This document shows, piece after piece, positions 17,896 to 58,988 of a stretch of 64,000 nucleotides of DNA. Numbering within the stretch: the first letter of the stretch is position 1; every line of letters begins with the position of its first letter. Position numbers and translations under genes: made by a program. A model generated the notes under the pieces. The model saw only the letters and a program-made list of their open reading frames with translations. It did no database searches and was not told where the DNA came from. Origin of the DNA: Pseudomonadota bacterium (GTDB taxonomy: Bacteria > Pseudomonadota > Alphaproteobacteria > Caulobacterales > Parvularculaceae); NCBI GenBank assembly GCA_039025235.1, contig JBCCOS010000003.1:72659-136658 (forward strand). The letters run 5' to 3'.

Positions 17896-18006
17896 TTAAA
17901 AGCGCCTTCGTTTCAATGAGAATCGGCACGTCGCTTTGAGTTTTTGTTTTACGCAATTCCTAACGTCCAACCGCACAGACTTTTCCTGGAAATGCTTGTA
18001 AAGCGC
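17896..18006 (+). repeat. Family B modular repeat, copy B1 (diverged)
   Basis: TTAAAAGCGCC-ttcgtttcaatgagaatcggcac-GTCGCTTTGAG hairpin module followed by the tail TTTTACGCAATTCCTAACGTCCAACCGCACAGAC...GGAAATGCTTGTAAAGCG. Confidence 0.8.
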
Positions 18007-31975: not shown

Positions 31976-32119
31976 TTTAAAGCGTCGACACTTCAATTGG
32001 AATCGGGACGACGTTTAAAGCGCTTCTGTTTCAATTGGAATCAGAACGGCGCTTTAAGTTTTTGATTTTACGCATTTTCTTAACGCCAACCGCACACACT
32101 TGGCTTGTAAATGCTTTAG
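31976..32119 (+). repeat. Family B modular repeat, copy B2 (two hairpin modules plus tail)
   Basis: TTTAAAGCGTCGACACTTCAATTGGAATCGGGACGACGTTTAAAGCGCTTCTGTTTCAATTGGAATCAGAACGGCGCTTTAAG followed by TTTTTGATTTTACGCATTTTCTTAACGCCAACCGCACACACTTGGCTTGTAAATGCTTTAGG. Confidence 0.9.
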
Positions 32120-41024: not shown

Positions 41025-41927
41025 ATGCGGTGCTTTTTCTCTGATACATTCGATCTCAACCTGCCGGAGGGACATCGCTTTCCTGGCCGTAAATACGGCA
41101 TGTTGCGTCGATTGCTCATTGAGGAGGCGATCCTCAGACCGTCCGAGCTCATACAATCACCGCCCATAGACGACGCTGATCTTTTGCGTGCTCACGACCC
41201 GGCTTATGTCCGTGCGATTGAAACAGGTGAGATTGATCCATCCGCCATGCGGCGCATTGGCTTTCCCTGGTCGCCGCATATCCACAAACGTGCCCGTGCG
41301 ACGATGGGAGGTGCTCTTGCCGCCGCGCGGTCGGCCCTCAACGACGGGATCTCAGGACAACTCGCCGGTGGCACGCATCATGCCCATTATGATTTCGGAT
41401 CGGGGTATTGCGTTTTTAATGACTTCGCTTGCGTTGCCCTTGCGCTTCTGCACGAAGGCGCTGTCCGACGCATTGCGATCATTGACCTTGATGTGCACCA
41501 GGGCGATGGCAATGCGGCAATCCTCACTGCGAATCCAAGTGTTTTCGTATTTTCAGTGCACGGTGCGAAAAACTTTCCATTCAGAAAAGTCGCCTCCGAC
41601 CTTGATGTCGCCTTGCCTGACGAAACGGGCGATATGGAATACCTAGAAGCCCTTGAGACACATCTGCCGCGCGTATTCGCGTTTGAGCCTGATCTTGTCC
41701 TCTACCAAGCAGGCGTCGACCCTTTGCGCGAAGATAGACTCGGCCGCATGACCCTCACCTTTGATGGTCTTATGGCCCGCGACCGCATGGTGCTTGGGGC
41801 CTGCCGCGAACGCGGAATCCCCGTCTCAATGGCTATTGGCGGCGGCTATGCCGACCCGATAGAGGCCAGCGTCAAAGCCTATGCCAACACCTATAAAGTG
41901 GCGAAAGAGATTTATACGGATGTATAG
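41025..41927 (+). CDS. histone deacetylase-family (arginase-fold) deacetylase
   Basis: GGTHHAHYDFGSGYCVFND and DLDVHQGDGN catalytic motifs. Confidence 0.88.
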   Translation: MRCFFSDTFDLNLPEGHRFPGRKYGMLRRLLIEEAILRPSELIQSPPIDDADLLRAHDPAYVRAIETGEIDPSAMRRIGFPWSPHIHKRARATMGGALAAARSALNDGISGQLAGGTHHAHYDFGSGYCVFNDFACVALALLHEGAVRRIAIIDLDVHQGDGNAAILTANPSVFVFSVHGAKNFPFRKVASDLDVALPDETGDMEYLEALETHLPRVFAFEPDLVLYQAGVDPLREDRLGRMTLTFDGLMARDRMVLGACRERGIPVSMAIGGGYADPIEASVKAYANTYKVAKEIYTDV

Positions 41928-41950
41928 CGATGCGAGCCCGCTCTTTCTTG

Positions 41951-42056
41951 CTAAAGCAATTCCAAGCCAAGTGTGTGCGGTTGGCGCTAAGGAAATGCGT
42001 AAAATCAAAAACTTAAAGCGCCCTTCTGACTCCAATTCAAACGGAGGCGCTTTAAG
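41951..42056 (-). repeat. Family B modular repeat, copy B3 (inverted orientation)
   Basis: Reverse complement reads GCTTAAAGCGCCTCCGTTTGAATTGGAGTCAGAAGGGCGCTTTAAG followed by TTTTTGATTTTACGCATTTCCTTAGCGCCAACCGCACACACTTGGCTTGGAATTGCTTTAG. Confidence 0.9.
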
Positions 42057-43854
42057 CCTCAAAGCTTTCTGCATCCGGTTGGCTTTCGATGAAACGATTG
42101 TGTACGGATGTATAGGTTGAGCGGTAGAGTGCGTCTAGGTCTTTGGCGGAGAGGAATTGCTCTGAAAAGCCCGGATGCACGGGGTCAATGGTTGACTTGG
42201 CCGCCTCTTTCATGTGGGCAAGGAGACGACGAGGGTCTTCTAATCCCACTGACAGGCGGATGGTTGTGGGGGCAATGCCTGCTTCTTTTTGGGCCTCAGC
42301 AGATAATTCCGAGTGGCTGGTAAGGCCGGGGCAAAGGGCGAGGGAGTTGGTTTGCCCGAGGCTCACTTGCAGGCCTAACGCCGGTTCAAGGCTATCGAAG
42401 AACCGTTTGAAGGCGTCTTTGTCCACCTCTTCCATGTCAATCGTAAAGAGCCCTGCGGGCATGGCATTTTTCATGGTGCTGCGGAAGGTCTGGTGGTTTG
42501 GGTGCGTTTCGATTGCCGGGCAATTGACGTTGATTTTCGGGTGTGCATTAAGGGCGTTCGCTAAGGTCAGTGTATTGACGGCTTTATGAACCACCCGCAA
42601 TTCATAGGTTTTGAGGCCATTCAATACTTCATAGGCTTTATCGGAATCGAGAAACGCGCCTTTCACATAGTAGACGTTCCAGAACATGGTCTCGTCCCAG
42701 TTAATTGTCTCTTCGCTGCCGTCGTATTTCGTCACGGACAGGCTATCCCCTTTTGGCATAAACATCCGCTCGGCCTTGCCGATGACAACGCCAGCGGTTG
42801 TTGCCCCGCCGCCGGTCATTTCTTTGGTATAGGAATGGATGACATAGTCGGGCCGGGCGATCTCGTCTTTGTGTTTTAGGACAGGATACAAGAACGGCGT
42901 TCCAACGGTGGTGTCGCAGGCGACGGTCCAGCCGTGTTCATGCGCGATCCGTGAAATGGCTGCGACGTCCAGCACATTTCCATGGGGATTGCACGGGCTT
43001 TCCACATAAACATAAATCCGACGGCCTTTCGCTATTCTGTCGGCGTATTTTTGCTCTGCTGCTTTGAGCGCCGCATCAAACGCTACACCGTCAAAGCCAT
43101 CGAACCATTCTATGGCGACATTTAAATTCCCTGGTTTGCCATACCAGTCATGGAGCAATTGATAAGTCCCGCCATAGACATTGCGGGATGAGAGAATGAT
43201 GTCTTCATAGCCAACTAGGTGTGAAAGCAGGCCATCAATAGCGGCCATGCCAGAGTTATAATTCCAGGCAAGGTATCGGTTCGCCTCATGGCCGCATTCC
43301 AGATCAACGATGTGGTTGGCGAGGCTAATTGATGTGGGGTTCAAAAGCCGCGAGTAAATTTCGTGTAATGGCTCGCGACCCGTAAACGCGTCTTCCACCC
43401 ATTCGGTGCAGGCGAAGAGATAGGTTGCCGTCCGTGTAATGACGGGAGTTGCTGAGAAAAGCGCTGTCACATTATCGAACAGCGGATAGGGGCCTTTGAC
43501 AGCAAAACCTGGATGTCCGGTCACCAGTGATTGGTAACTCGCGCGCATCGGATTTTGCAGCGTATCCAGAACTTTAGCGAGTTGGAAGCATATGAACCGT
43601 TTTGCGTTGAACCAGGCAATACGGTCCGACCGGTCCAATGTGCCAAGGTGCTCTGCTGTCGTTTTGCAAATCGCGTCAGCATCGCCGTTCAGCGCATAAA
43701 GCCGTGTTGCAAAATCCAGAAGAGCCGCTCCATAGGCGCTGTCTGGATTTACGCCAAAATGCGCAAGCTGTTCGCTGGCGAGCTTCTCCGGATCGGATGC
43801 GTTTGTGGTGTTCCGTAGGGGACTTAATTGGCGTAGCGCTTTAACATCCGACAT
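42052..43854 (-). CDS. Cys/Met-metabolism PLP-dependent enzyme family protein, atypically long (600 aa)
   Basis: YSRLLNPTSISLANHIVDLECG, YVESPCNPHG, HSYTKEMTGGG (PLP-lysine region) and IRLSVGLEDP match the trans-sulfuration/gamma-lyase family. It also has a ~170-aa N-terminal extension and internal inserts. Confidence 0.75.
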   Translation of the reverse strand: MSDVKALRQLSPLRNTTNASDPEKLASEQLAHFGVNPDSAYGAALLDFATRLYALNGDADAICKTTAEHLGTLDRSDRIAWFNAKRFICFQLAKVLDTLQNPMRASYQSLVTGHPGFAVKGPYPLFDNVTALFSATPVITRTATYLFACTEWVEDAFTGREPLHEIYSRLLNPTSISLANHIVDLECGHEANRYLAWNYNSGMAAIDGLLSHLVGYEDIILSSRNVYGGTYQLLHDWYGKPGNLNVAIEWFDGFDGVAFDAALKAAEQKYADRIAKGRRIYVYVESPCNPHGNVLDVAAISRIAHEHGWTVACDTTVGTPFLYPVLKHKDEIARPDYVIHSYTKEMTGGGATTAGVVIGKAERMFMPKGDSLSVTKYDGSEETINWDETMFWNVYYVKGAFLDSDKAYEVLNGLKTYELRVVHKAVNTLTLANALNAHPKINVNCPAIETHPNHQTFRSTMKNAMPAGLFTIDMEEVDKDAFKRFFDSLEPALGLQVSLGQTNSLALCPGLTSHSELSAEAQKEAGIAPTTIRLSVGLEDPRRLLAHMKEAAKSTIDPVHPGFSEQFLSAKDLDALYRSTYTSVHNRFIESQPDAESFEA

Positions 43855-44021
43855 CTCAGACCTCTTTTCGAATAAATGGTGCGAAGTTCTGCCTAAAATA
43901 TGGGAAAAAAAGCGTAGAGTGATCGAAAAATACGATAAATTATTGCTTTATACTCAGAAATTCGCCAAATTTGAGGCAGAATCTATCAAAATTGGGGGTT
44001 AACGGCGATAGGATAGTCACT

Positions 44022-44480
44022 ATGGATTCAAAAGATCGAGAAATCATCCGCGAGTTGCAATTGAACGGGCGTCTTACCAACCAAGAATTATCTGACCGCG
44101 TGAATCTCTCTCCATCTCCCTGTCTTCGACGACTTCGCGCCCTGGAGGCTGAGGGAGTGATTACCGGATATACGGCCCTGGTGGATCAGGAATTATTTGG
44201 ATTGCCCCTCACGGTTTTTATTCAAGTTTCTCTCGATAAACACGATGAGAAAACCGTCGGGCGGTTCGAGGATTATATTCGGAAAATTGATGAAATTCTG
44301 GAGTGCTGGATGACAACGGGCGACGCTGACTATCTATTACGTGTGGTCGCGTCGAGTATTGACGATTATGAAAAATTTATCCGTACACGATTACATCGTA
44401 TTCCAGGGGTAGGATCAATTGATACAAGCTTTGCCTATGGACGGATCAAACGGTCTTTCGTTTATCCAAATAAAGAGTAG
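44022..44480 (+). CDS. Lrp/AsnC family transcriptional regulator
   Basis: MDSKDREIIRELQLNGRLTNQELSDRVNLSPSPCLRRLRALEAEGVITGY plus a RAM/ligand domain. ATG at 44022. Confidence 0.92.
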   Translation: MDSKDREIIRELQLNGRLTNQELSDRVNLSPSPCLRRLRALEAEGVITGYTALVDQELFGLPLTVFIQVSLDKHDEKTVGRFEDYIRKIDEILECWMTTGDADYLLRVVASSIDDYEKFIRTRLHRIPGVGSIDTSFAYGRIKRSFVYPNKE

Positions 44481-44485
44481 TTTGA

Positions 44486-44589
44486 TTAAAGCGTCGACAC
44501 TTCAATTGGAATCGGGACGACGCTTTAAGTCTTTGATTTTACGCATTTCCTTAACGCCAACCGCACACGCTTGGCCTGGAAATGCTTTT
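44486..44589 (+). repeat. Family B modular repeat, copy B4
   Basis: TTAAAGCGTCGACACTTCAATTGGAATCGGGACGACGCTTTAAG followed by TCTTTGATTTTACGCATTTCCTTAACGCCAACCGCACACGCTTGGCCTGGAAATGCTTTTAA. TTAA at both ends. Confidence 0.92.
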
Positions 44590-45205
44590 AAATAAAGGGG
44601 ATCAGAGGGATCCCTCGGTTGAACCGTTTTTCGCAACGTGAGAGTTGTGCTTGGTAATTACGCGCTGTACTGTCCACTATTCTTGCCGCGCGCTTGAGTG
44701 TGCTTTTACGGCGATAGGTCCCCCGCGCATACCCGGCCCAACCTTCATGATAGGCGAGGTATTGCCTGTAGCCATCGCTTAAGGAAATACCATTGCGTCG
44801 TCGCGATTCGGCCCCGTACCAGGCGACGAAATCGGCAGCATCGCGAAAGTTCTTCCGGCTTGCCCCGCGGTTGCCGGCTGATTTCTTATATTGATCCCAG
44901 GTTCCATCAAGGGCTTGAGGGTAACCGCGTGCGGATGATTTTCGCTTGCCCGGAAAGACAAATAGAAATTTACCCCGCTTTGGCTTGGCGCTGGCATCAA
45001 AGCCGGATTCCTGCCGGATAATGGCCAGCTGCAATGATTTGGGCATGCCCCACCGTTTCTGTGCTTTTTTCGTCGCTCTGTACCAGCTGCGTTTCTCTTC
45101 GAAAATATCACATGCATTACTGACATTTTGCGGCGGCGTTTTTGCGCACGCTGCTAGGGAACACAACGTAACAATGATCAGTGGCAAACGGCTTAGCATC
45201 GGCAT
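44588..45205 (-). CDS. transglycosylase SLT-domain lipoprotein
   Basis: Lipobox LCSLAAC, then LQLAIIRQESGFDASAKP (catalytic Glu context) and YLAYHEGWAGY. Its stop codon lies in the terminal TTAA of repeat B4. Confidence 0.75.
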   Translation of the reverse strand: MPMLSRLPLIIVTLCSLAACAKTPPQNVSNACDIFEEKRSWYRATKKAQKRWGMPKSLQLAIIRQESGFDASAKPKRGKFLFVFPGKRKSSARGYPQALDGTWDQYKKSAGNRGASRKNFRDAADFVAWYGAESRRRNGISLSDGYRQYLAYHEGWAGYARGTYRRKSTLKRAARIVDSTARNYQAQLSRCEKRFNRGIPLIPFI

Positions 45206-45221: not shown

Positions 45222-45265
45222 TTTAGAGCTTTTTGCGTTCCGATGGAATCGGAACGCTGCTCTAA
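45222..45265. repeat. isolated Family B hairpin module (diverged)
   Basis: TTAGAGCtttttgcgTTCCGATGGAATCggaacgctGCTCTAAG. Confidence 0.6.
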
Positions 45266-45365
45266 GTCCTTGTTTGGTCGCGCTTCTTTTGCCGAGTTGA
45301 TGGACGGGAACCATCAACCGATCACACGTATCGGCGAAGCGCTCTATAGTATCGCACAAAAAGTG

Positions 45366-45410
45366 TTTAAAGCCGTACCGTTTCAAATGGAATCGCTGAA
45401 CGGCTTTAGG
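45366..45410. repeat. isolated Family B hairpin module (diverged)
   Basis: TTTAAAGCcgtaccgTTTCAAATGGAATCgctgaacgGCTTTAGG. Abuts the stop of the threonine aldolase gene. Confidence 0.65.
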
Positions 45411-46497
45411 ACTTTTCGTTTATAAATCTATTTGCTTTGCTTAGGAATGCATCAATCTCCGCTTTGCTGGTTTGAAATGATGTGACCAATCGGTGCATTC
45501 GTTTGCATGATGGGGCCCCTGGTGTGTGCCAGGGAAAGAATATGAATTCACTCTCCAAAAGTGCTTCGGCAACGCCGTCTGGAAAAGAAACGAAGACTTC
45601 GTTTGCTTGTGTTGGTGAGCAGATTTTGCAGCCGCCTATCCCAGCAAGCCCCTCGGAGATCTGACGAGCGGCCGCATTCGCCTGGGTTGCCAGTTTCAAC
45701 CACAAGCCATCCGCGAGGTAGGTGTCGAACTGGGCTGAGATCAAGGCGGACTTTGAAAGTAAGTGTCCCGCGCGTTTTTGATAGAACGGAAATTCTTCTG
45801 CCTGCGCTTTATTAAAAAATACGACTGCTTCCGCGAGGGGGCATCCGTTTTTGGTGGCGCCGAATGATAGGGCGTCCACCCCGGCGCGCCAGGTGAGGTC
45901 TGCAGGAGAGACCCCAAGGCTTGCAACGGCATTCGCAAACCGTGCGCCGTCCATGTGTACGTTCATTCCCCGGTTTTTGGCGAACGTGCATAACGCCGTT
46001 AGTTCCTCTGGTGCGTAAACCGTCCCCAATTCCGTGGCTTGAGTCAGACAAAGCGTCGTCACCGGTTGGCTATGGGGGGGATGATTGGGCAACTGATCAA
46101 TGCGTGTGGCAATGGCTTTTGGTGTGAGTTTTCCATCGGCTCCGGGTATCGTGATGAGCTTTGCACCGCCAGTGAAAAACTCAGGCCCGCCGCCTTCGTC
46201 GAGAACAATATGTGCGGCCTCATGACAGACAATGGCACCATAGGGCGGCGTTAGAACGGATAGCGCCAACCCGTTTGCCGCGCCGCCTGTCGCAACAAAA
46301 AAGACGGTGACGTCGCGCTCAAAAATTTCGCAAAACCGGGCGCGGGCGCGTGCCGATAGAGGGTCGTCTCCATAGGCAGGAAAGTGTGCAGGCGCAGGAA
46401 AGTGTGCAGGTGCGCCAGTCTCAGATTGAAACGCGCGGACGAGGGCATCTGCGATTTCAGGCGCACAAAGGGACCAATTATCGGAAGCGAATGTCAT
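45406..46497 (-). CDS. ltaE: low-specificity L-threonine aldolase family protein
   Basis: FASDNWS..., HMDGARFANA and FGATKNG (PLP-Lys) are beta-eliminating lyase/threonine aldolase motifs. Confidence 0.85.
   Translation of the reverse strand: MTFASDNWSLCAPEIADALVRAFQSETGAPAHFPAPAHFPAYGDDPLSARARARFCEIFERDVTVFFVATGGAANGLALSVLTPPYGAIVCHEAAHIVLDEGGGPEFFTGGAKLITIPGADGKLTPKAIATRIDQLPNHPPHSQPVTTLCLTQATELGTVYAPEELTALCTFAKNRGMNVHMDGARFANAVASLGVSPADLTWRAGVDALSFGATKNGCPLAEAVVFFNKAQAEEFPFYQKRAGHLLSKSALISAQFDTYLADGLWLKLATQANAAARQISEGLAGIGGCKICSPTQANEVFVSFPDGVAEALLESEFIFFPWHTPGAPSCKRMHRLVTSFQTSKAEIDAFLSKANRFINEKS
46376..46411. repeat. 18-bp x2 in-frame tandem duplication in the threonine aldolase gene
   Basis: gcaggaaagtgtgcaggc / gcaggaaagtgtgcaggt. 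Encodes APAHFPAPAHFPA. Confidence 0.9.
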
Positions 46498-58875: not shown

Positions 58876-58988
58876 GACGCTTTAAAGCATTTCCAAGCCA
58901 AGTGTGTGCGGTTGGCGTTAAGGAAATGCGTAAAAATAGTGACGTAAAGCGTCGTCGCGATTCCAATTGAAGTGTCGACGCTTTAAGT
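58876..58988 (-). repeat. Family B modular repeat, copy B6 (inverted orientation)
   Basis: Reverse complement reads CTTAAAGCGTCGACACTTCAATTGGAATCGCGACGACGCTTTACG...TTTTTACGCATTTCCTTAACGCCAACCGCACACACTTGGCTTGGAAATGCTTTAAAGCGTC. Confidence 0.92.

Follow-up and report, generated by a model that had tools for sequence, protein, structure and literature searches.

The RUP element of Streptococcus pneumoniae is a bacterial MITE mobilised by IS630/Tc1-mariner elements, as summarised in PMC2229807 (Oggioni & Claverys, 1999, via PMC2229807). In alphaproteobacteria, including Caulobacter and Brucella, CIR elements have been described (Chen & Shapiro, 2003, via PMC2229807), and they are presented there as only partly MITE-like. 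MITEs can also bound larger units, as in the composite transposons known as TIME-COMPs (PMC13367494). Here, we compare these systems with a locus in which the genes for a PLP enzyme and a divergently transcribed Lrp/AsnC-family regulator are enclosed by two inverted copies (B3 and B4) of a repeat, Family B, located by a repeat search within the 64,000-nt stretch of DNA that was analysed as a whole (the window). Comparable Brucella repeats are Bru-RS1 and Bru-RS2, and MITE-flanked integron units exist in Acinetobacter and Enterobacter. The transposon-like look of the locus is most likely a coincidence.

The PLP-Lrp locus and its repeats

The features of the locus are listed below; the coordinates of B3 and B4 include the flanking Y-TA.

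41025-41927, plus strand: Hist_deacetyl-family gene (HDAC), left flank (Pfam Hist_deacetyl, E 4.8e-57)
41951-42056, minus strand: Family B MITE copy B3, main subfamily (92% identity to the family consensus)
42052-43854, minus strand: PLP enzyme, 600 aa, gamma-family, Cys/Met metabolism (PF01053 Cys_Met_Meta_PP, E 2.2e-61, residues 134-551)
43855-44021, unstranded: PLP/lrp divergent promoter and operator region, placed by its location between the two start codons
44022-44480, plus strand: Lrp/AsnC-family regulator, 152 aa (Pfam AsnC_trans_reg, HTH_24, HTH_AsnC-type)
44486-44590, plus strand: Family B MITE copy B4, 44-copy subfamily (97% identity to its own subfamily consensus)
44588-45205, minus strand: SLT_4 lytic-transglycosylase-like lipoprotein gene (SLT), right flank (Pfam SLT_4, E 3e-74)
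45223-45346, unstranded: copy of family X, a MITE-like repeat of ~124 nt with TAGAGC termini (~125 genomic matches along its length)
45367-45410, unstranded: solo hairpin module overlapping the ThrAld stop (~80 genomic matches)
45406-46497, minus strand: threonine-aldolase-like gene (ThrAld; Pfam Beta_elim_lyase)

The PLP enzyme has an N-terminal extension of ~130 aa before its Cys/Met domain, and methionine gamma-lyases are its closest relatives among solved structures (E 1e-39). The regulator matches the NCBIfam Lrp model with an E of 5.7e-36, which is under that model's cut-off. The module probably functions in amino-acid catabolism.

The first-pass annotation described B3 and B4 as inverted ends around the gene pair, with B3 abutting the PLP stop, B4 starting 6 nt after the Lrp stop, and both hairpin modules pointing inward. 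Reading the sequence bears this description out. The arms (41953-42055 and 44486-44588) are 103 nt each and 84% complementary, with 2430 nt between them. The tail end of B3 faces HDAC, 24 nt past the HDAC stop, and its hairpin end overlaps the PLP stop with an offset of 0, such that the TAA at 42052-42054 consists of the flanking TA and the first A of the element. At the other junction, the hairpin end of B4 lies 6 nt after the Lrp TAG (44478-44480), and the tail end of B4 furnishes the SLT stop codon (44588-44590). As judged by reading the edited sequence, in-silico removal of B3 or B4 leaves an intact convergent junction with the stop codons kept; without the MITEs, the inserted DNA brings hardly any additional flank, with 24 nt remaining up to the HDAC stop and 5 nt up to that of SLT.

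The outer flanks read ...CTTTCTTGC followed by TA on the left, and TA followed by AATAAAGG on the right. Direct repeats immediately outside the bracketed unit had been suggested as a signature of its movement, and outside 41951 and 44590 we found none longer than the TA dinucleotide, which is common to every member of the family. Because TA is present at the outer and inner ends of B3 and B4 alike, as it is throughout the family, it cannot separate movement of a composite from independent insertion of each copy.

Every junction from HDAC through ThrAld is occupied by some repeat. Hairpin modules at 45222 and 45366 had been reported as flanking the SLT gene; both in fact lie on the same side of it, between the SLT start and the ThrAld stop, and while the module at 45366 is indeed a solo hairpin, that at 45222 is part of the ~124-nt family X copy.

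Family B in the genome

Family B is a non-coding element of ~105 nt, and this 3.89-Mb genome contains ~226 full-length copies of it and ~130 partial ones; its copies have a median identity of 93% to the consensus. In the fold of the consensus, positions 2-42 and 58-100 each form a hairpin, the pairing of which is retained in 72-98% of copies, and a compensatory C-G to T-A stem change is found in 44 copies, B4 among them. B3 and B4 belong to different subfamilies and are 84% identical, differing at 16% of positions. A GANTC sequence, the CcrM site, occupies consensus positions 24-28, in the terminal loop of one arm, in 167 of the 226 copies, and is conserved no more highly than the adjoining positions. 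There are two N6_N4 methyltransferase genes in the genome. A consensus scan for intrinsic terminators flagged none of the Family B elements, and a terminator role for them is speculation.

More than 200 of the 226 full copies have ends of the form Y-TA-AAGCG...GCTT-TA-R; TA adjoins the left end in ~211-217 copies and the right end in ~203-205, followed outward by Y and R, respectively. This pattern indicates that TA is duplicated at YTAR, as it is by IS630-type elements. IS5/IS427-group elements likewise duplicate TA at YTAR, and an IS5-type fragment is present at a contig end. The invariant flanking TA of Family B is formally inseparable from the sequence of the element itself. An IS630-family (DDE_3) gene, present as a single copy and possibly frame-shifted, lies at C4:119.4-120.4 kb. 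The ends of this IS630-like element are TA-flanked, TA[T/G]AGCGTTTCAT, and share 9-10 of 11 nt with the MITE ends, which is a short match. We infer that an IS630-type transposase mobilises Family B. A family X copy adjoins the IS630-like element on C4.

A first look by genome search gave ~343 candidate copies in the genome studied here (G000), and candidate copies are fewer elsewhere: 89 in G014, 22 in G005, 2-9 in G009, and 0 in most relatives. That the bracketing repeats resemble MITEs had been suggested from the window; the TA/YTAR ends, the 226 full copies and this distribution support their being MITE-like mobile elements that have undergone patchy, lineage-specific amplification.

For genome-wide statistics, genes were taken from a crude longest-ORF caller, such that the counts are approximate: 213 of the 226 full copies lie outside called ORFs, and by class, convergent intergenic regions hold 101, tandem ones 94 and divergent ones 9, with 13 inside ORFs. 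The convergent class makes up only 17% of intergenic regions, yet it holds about half of the full copies. Family B is found in 101 of 509 convergent regions (20%), and 41% of convergent regions contain some repeat shared with at least five other regions; the first-pass annotation had named repeats at most convergent sites, whatever the gene content, as counting against its cassette, and these counts largely bear that out. Orientation is random, with neighbours less than 5 kb apart facing inward in 12 cases, facing outward in 12 and running in the same direction in 29, and the spacing of copies is compatible with random placement.

Bracketed gene pairs are no more frequent than expected by chance. 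Four of the 83 two-gene units with a convergent-divergent-convergent arrangement are bracketed by Family B, with 3.3 expected, and one of them has its hairpins inward, with 0.8 expected. The remaining three enclose cysS/folE, kdsD/kdsA, and an unnamed gene paired with a NarL-type regulator; the first two are housekeeping pairs, and among the single genes bracketed by Family B are secB and the part of metH that binds homocysteine. Chance cannot account for the B3/B4 repeat itself; by contrast, the geometry of the bracket fits chance. Given that a fifth of convergent regions carry Family B in random orientation, the inverted geometry is not evidence of a cassette, and its reading as the mark of a mobilisable unit has no support beyond chance.

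Origin of the bracketed gene pair

The PLP-Lrp pair is an accessory, lineage-specific addition where relatives have HDAC facing ThrAld or SLT. The PLP gene occurs in 3 of the 152 family genomes, but in none of the 30 nearest and none of the 9 from the same genus; the other two family genomes carry it in a different context with no adjacent Lrp gene, and G000 holds a single PLP-Lrp copy. HDAC is beside the ferrochelatase gene (FeCh) in 12 of 13 relatives, and in most relatives its direct convergent neighbour is ThrAld, with a gap of 3-130 nt in G005, G007 and nine metagenome contigs. SLT is a single-copy gene for which 16 of the 30 relatives have a counterpart, 53-70% identical, and it adjoins ThrAld in G009 and G018. 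G014, from another genus, lacks PLP-Lrp and has a related MITE copy, in the opposite orientation, ~28 nt downstream of its HDAC orthologue, which speaks for an independent insertion into the equivalent site.

The description of the pair as a self-contained module is borne out by other taxa: Hellea MAGs, Vibrionaceae, Porticoccaceae and others have the same divergent arrangement of the two genes among different neighbours, and it is kept in 33 of 57 foreign loci. We detected no Family B copy beside PLP-Lrp at the 57 genome loci, in the two other family genomes or on metagenome contigs, and no inverted repeats of note flank the pair in other taxa. The nearest homologues, from the same bacterial family or Hellea MAGs, are 72-74% identical, which is about the divergence of core genes. 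A compositional skew relative to the flanks had been proposed as a check, and the pair proved ordinary in this respect: GC z-scores are 0.8 for the PLP gene and -1.5 for the Lrp gene, codon-use percentiles are 74 and 48, and GC3 of both is inside the normal range of the genome. Look-ups of the exact proteins returned a single run, SRR22824307, in which the contigs end inside B3 and B4, and no exact record of the SLT protein was found. Metagenome contigs yielded no closer strain, the best HDAC match being only 71% identical.

We propose that B3 and B4 are likely to be two independent insertions of an abundant MITE at stop-proximal TA sites of an acquired module. The lineage would have gained the PLP-Lrp module between the convergent genes HDAC and SLT, and insertion of a divergent pair would have created two new convergent junctions, each of which could later have taken its own Family B copy, from different subfamilies. 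We infer this order of events, with cargo first and MITEs second. Family B would insert at the TA of YTAR and duplicate TA, like IS630-type transposases, and an element that starts with A and ends with T would, on entering a TAA or TAG stop codon at its TA, restore TAA on both sides. Such rebuilding of stops would mean that copies are tolerated at the 3' ends of genes and accumulate in convergent regions. The TA-A...T-TA design of the ends would likewise account for their coincidence with stop codons: the adjacent stop is exactly TA plus the first base of the element at 48 of 446 ends (11%), with at most 4 at any other offset. The inverted, hairpins-inward layout would be one of four equally likely orientation outcomes.

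An alternative that we regard as unlikely is a MITE-bounded composite, in which B3, the two genes and B4 moved as a whole; a transposase would have worked in trans on the outer tail ends, and the TA at the SLT stop, in a short HDAC/SLT spacer, would have been the target. Such a move would fit the distribution of the cargo, lacking in 149 of the 152 family genomes and in each of the 9 of the same genus, and the arrangement in relatives, where HDAC is directly convergent with ThrAld or SLT is beside ThrAld. The insert is trimmed to exactly two ORFs plus MITEs, the genome has an IS630-family transposase gene with similar termini (C4:119.4-120.4 kb), and there are MITE-bounded precedents elsewhere, such as TIME-COMPs (PMC13367494). 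The family TA is present at both outer ends, but its presence at all four makes it uninformative. Bracketed units are also not above chance, their orientation is random, and others among them contain essential genes. Moreover, the two arms come from different subfamilies, the composition of the pair is ordinary, and the arrangement is known from a single context, with Family B missing at every other PLP-Lrp locus. We note, against independent insertions, that the ends of the accessory cargo coincide with the MITEs to within 0-6 nt on the inner side, and that a MITE-bounded composite would explain so close a fit more neatly than would an insertion of unspecified kind.

It is very unlikely that nothing was inserted, and that an ancestral pair was lost repeatedly while MITEs settled on old convergent junctions. 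Normal GC, GC3 and codon use, and nearest homologues at about core-gene divergence, would be expected of an old resident; however, the gene is kept by only 3 of 152 genomes, in two of them elsewhere and without an adjacent Lrp gene, and the widespread FeCh-HDAC-ThrAld order, with its gap of 3-130 nt, would require many precise independent deletions. Least probable of all is that resident MITEs between HDAC and SLT provided homology for incoming DNA flanked by the same family, or for a rearrangement that built the junctions: repeats do occupy all the gene junctions from HDAC to ThrAld, and an inversion distinguishes G000 from its closest relative, G009, with breakpoints at HDAC|SLT and C7:56175|56283, the latter holding a family X MITE in G000, but the two breakpoints carry different families and hence no long shared homology, B3 and B4 are mismatched at 16% of positions, one crossover event would be expected to produce direct rather than inverted repeats, and many copies are found only in G000, G014 and G005, making a donor with the same family unlikely.

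The locus is mainly a caution: where a MITE occupies a fifth of convergent regions, a few inverted brackets around gene pairs will arise by chance and are no evidence of a cassette. PLP-Lrp is a portable two-gene module, common to Vibrionaceae, Porticoccaceae and Hellea MAGs and nearly missing from its own family here, and the locus gives a clear-cut example of a module acquired at a conserved junction. Family B may also serve as a model for MITE colonisation of compact genomes. Were the composite true instead, stop-codon-compatible MITEs of a marine alphaproteobacterium would be able to carry chromosomal gene modules, extending MITE-mediated gene capture from resistance plasmids to the chromosomal metabolism of environmental bacteria.

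Comparison with known MITEs and composites

As in TIME-COMPs and MITE-flanked integron units, two copies of one MITE family enclose accessory cargo at this locus. Those units are recognised by their recurrence across contexts with flanking duplications, whereas the PLP-Lrp unit is known from a single context and has only the 2-nt TA. Its arms are from different subfamilies, such bracketing shows no excess over chance, and what the unit carries is a metabolic enzyme and its regulator rather than a resistance gene.

Family B resembles IS630-type MITEs such as RUP in being ~105 nt long, non-coding, mostly intergenic, present in more than 100 copies and bordered by TA at both ends, and over a short stretch its termini (TAAAGCATTTC and TAGAGCGCTTC) resemble those of the resident IS (TA[T/G]AGCGTTTC). 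However, Family B has a very short terminal inverted repeat (TAAAGC/GCTTTA), it consists of two separate hairpins and a linker rather than an end-to-end stem, and its placement is strongly biased to convergent regions, often overlapping stop codons.

In architecture, Family B resembles CIR elements as they are described: it is intergenic, it is close in size to the ~110 nt of a CIR, it has two inverted-repeat arms joined by a linker, and one arm has GANTC in its terminal loop. Rfam contains no family that Family B matches at threshold, but BASRCI27, a Brucella sRNA family, can be aligned to two copies over the full length of the element and with consistent orientation, scoring 19.9 and 25.2 bits, which is far short of the gathering threshold of 59.8. 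What sets Family B apart from CIRs, as described, is its clear TA/YTAR end signature and its lineage-specific bursts.

The bracketed locus and its repeats

Two inverted copies of Family B, a two-hairpin repeat of ~105 nt, enclose a PLP-enzyme gene and a divergent Lrp regulator gene (the PLP-Lrp pair). A repeat search of the window gave arms of 103 nt each (41953-42055 and 44486-44588) that are 84% complementary and 2430 nt apart, and reading the sequence confirmed the junctions described in the first-pass annotation: the hairpin end of copy B3 overlaps the PLP stop codon, and copy B4 starts 6 nt past the Lrp stop, with its tail end overlapping the SLT stop. The two further hairpin modules that the annotation described as flanking SLT are present, but both lie between SLT and ThrAld.

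Features of the locus, and Family B copies, in the window
41025-41927, plus: histone-deacetylase-family gene (HDAC), outside B3
41951-42056, minus: Family B copy B3
42052-43854, minus: Cys/Met-metabolism PLP enzyme, 600 aa (PF01053, E 2e-61)
44022-44480, plus: Lrp/AsnC regulator, divergent from the PLP gene
44486-44590, plus: Family B copy B4
44588-45205, minus: SLT_4 lipoprotein gene (SLT), outside B4
45223-45346: copy of family X, a second MITE-like repeat (TAGAGC termini, ~124 nt, ~125 genomic copies), between SLT and ThrAld
45367-45410: solo hairpin (~42 nt, ~80 genomic copies), overlapping the ThrAld stop
45406-46497, minus: threonine-aldolase-like gene (ThrAld), beyond SLT
17898-18000, 32016-32118 and 58883-58985: other Family B copies

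A TGGAATC loop motif is common to Family B and the hairpins at 45223-45346 and 45367-45410.

The 3.89-Mb assembly contains 226 Family B copies with a length of 95 nt or more, plus ~130 partial ones. Element ends were defined by aligning all full copies with their flanks, which gave sharp conservation borders, Y-TA-AAGCG ... GCTT-TA-R; judged from this alignment, TA on both sides in a YTAR context is the signature left when IS630-type transposition duplicates a TA. A second possible origin of this signature is the IS5/IS427 group of elements. An IS5-type fragment is present at a contig end of the window's own genome. The genome has one IS630-family (DDE_3) gene, outside the window at 119.4-120.4 kb of contig C4, in an element spanning C4:119199-120432. 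Its TA-flanked termini, TA[T/G]AGCGTTTCAT, resemble the Family B and family X ends at 9-10 of 11 positions, and a copy of each family directly adjoins the element. This element is the candidate transposase source. An A-run between the element's two ORFs may be a frameshift site.

The Family B consensus folds into two hairpins and a linker, and a compensatory C-G to T-A change in one stem pair marks a subfamily of 44 copies. B3 is a main-subfamily member (92% to consensus), whereas B4 falls in the 44-copy subfamily (97% to its consensus), which is why they are only 84% identical to each other; this points to separate source copies. Genome searches found ~343 Family B candidates in the window's own genome, 89 in one genome of another genus, 22 and 2-9 in two species of the same genus, and none in most relatives. 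Since copy number is lineage-specific, Family B is a MITE that underwent a burst in this lineage.

The PLP-Lrp module and its junction

The closest solved relatives of the PLP enzyme are methionine gamma-lyases, and a ~130-aa N-terminal extension precedes its Cys_Met_Meta_PP domain. The enzyme occurs very patchily, at 54-73% identity, in Desulfuromonadales, Vibrionaceae, Porticoccaceae and MAGs of Hellea, Flavobacteriaceae and Planctomycetota, and in most cases a divergent Lrp accompanies it. The divergent layout is seen in 33 of 57 loci from Hellea MAGs, Vibrionaceae, Porticoccaceae, Rhodospirillales and others, and none of these loci shares the window's flanking genes. The closest homologues, 72-74% identical, come from the same family or from Hellea MAGs. 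The PLP gene occurs in only three of 152 family genomes; the other two carriers have it in another setting that lacks Family B and in which no Lrp was detected next to it. In these two genomes (G142:C11:331900-333687 and G158:C5:372071-373858) the open frame around the PLP match is 1076 aa, which suggests fusion or read-through with a neighbouring gene. The pair is thus an accessory, self-contained module. In the comparison of composition that the first-pass annotation suggested, GC, GC3 and codon use proved unremarkable for both genes, so the gain is either old or from a compositionally similar donor.

The first-pass annotation asked whether relatives have or lack the pair as a unit. The PLP gene was not found in the 30 nearest genomes, including nine of the same genus; in relatives and metagenome contigs, ferrochelatase (FeCh)-HDAC is followed by convergent ThrAld-HAD, with only 3-130 nt separating HDAC from ThrAld. 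The single-copy gene SLT, found in many relatives, adjoins ThrAld in G009, the closest relative, and in G018, whose gene order here is FeCh-SLT-ThrAld. The most economical history would start from HDAC facing SLT-ThrAld, with PLP-Lrp later entering between HDAC and SLT. That an ancestral pair was lost repeatedly is improbable, and MITE-assisted recombination a little more so.

Excising each MITE in silico gave HDAC-TAG-(22 nt)-CTA-PLP and Lrp-TAG-(5 nt)-TTA-SLT, and excising the whole unit gave HDAC-TAG-(24 nt)-TA-SLT. All stop codons remained intact after each removal; hence, separate insertion and movement as a unit are both mechanically possible. The window's genome and G009 also differ by an inversion, with breakpoints at HDAC/SLT (window 41928-44590) and C7:56175/56283; in the window's genome MITEs lie at both, Family B at the former and family X at C7:56175-56283.

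Independent insertion or a composite

Placement was scored against 3100 ORFs from a crude longest-ORF call (85% coverage). Full Family B copies lie in convergent (101), tandem (94) and divergent (9) intergenic regions, with 13 inside ORFs; as 509 of the 3046 intergenic regions are convergent, one convergent region in five is occupied. The first-pass annotation named repeats at most convergent sites, whatever the gene content, as grounds for refuting the cassette; a repeat common to at least five other intergenic regions occurs in 41% of convergent regions, versus 7% of divergent and 11.5% of tandem ones. At 48 of 446 Family B ends, the PLP and SLT stops among them, the neighbouring gene's stop is made up exactly of the TA beside the element and the element's own first base; no other offset was seen more than four times. 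This pattern arises because the element has A as its first base and T as its last (TA-A...T-TA): when it enters the TA of a TAA or TAG stop, TAA is restored for a gene on either side and either strand. Because YTAR sites are uncommon and a stop codon can itself be a YTAR candidate, special targeting is probably not needed to explain the frequency.

Successive full copies that lie within 5 kb of each other form 12 pairs with hairpins inward, 12 outward and 29 direct, the 1:1:2 ratio of random orientation, and the count of close pairs fits random spacing. Given 83 convergent-divergent-convergent two-gene units and 19.8% occupancy, we expected 3.3 units bracketed on both sides and 0.8 with hairpins inward, and observed four and one, respectively. 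The remaining three consist of cysS/folE, kdsD/kdsA, and a NarL-type regulator paired with an unnamed gene. Copies also bracket single genes, among them secB, mscS, a NUDIX hydrolase gene and the homocysteine-binding part of metH. In G014, from a different genus, a related copy of opposite orientation lies downstream of the HDAC orthologue, at a distance of ~28 nt and with no PLP-Lrp present, indicating that the site was struck independently. The bracket is therefore not special, but an ordinary consequence of a MITE-saturated genome.

We consider it likely that B3 and B4 are independent insertions. Of the mobilisable cassette proposed in the first-pass annotation, the MITEs and the accessory cargo stand, but support for mobilisation does not rise above chance. 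Movement of B3-PLP-Lrp-B4 as one composite is unlikely. In its favour are the trimming of the insert to exactly two ORFs and the existence elsewhere of MITE-bounded composites, TIME-COMPs (PMC13367494). Against it, bracketed units are not in excess, orientation is random, essential genes are likewise bracketed, B3 and B4 derive from different subfamilies, the unit occurs in a single context, and no other PLP-Lrp locus has Family B. All four ends of B3 and B4 carry the TA duplication, which therefore cannot choose between composite and independent origins.

Comparison with known elements

The architecture of Family B fits the description of alphaproteobacterial CIR elements, which are ~110 nt long and have two arms, a linker, and a terminal loop that contains GANTC (PMC2229807). 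In Family B this CcrM-type methylation site is in the hairpin-1 loop of 167 of the 226 copies (consensus 24-28; B4 44509-44513, B3 42027-42031), in keeping with the description of CIR repeats from Caulobacter and Brucella. The Rfam model BASRCI27, a Brucella sRNA, aligned end to end with two Family B copies in consistent orientation but far below threshold, so that CIR membership is a lead. In function, Family B is like IS630-type MITEs such as RUP, with which it shares a TA target, more than 100 intergenic copies and termini that resemble the ends of an IS630-family element resident in the genome (PMC2229807).
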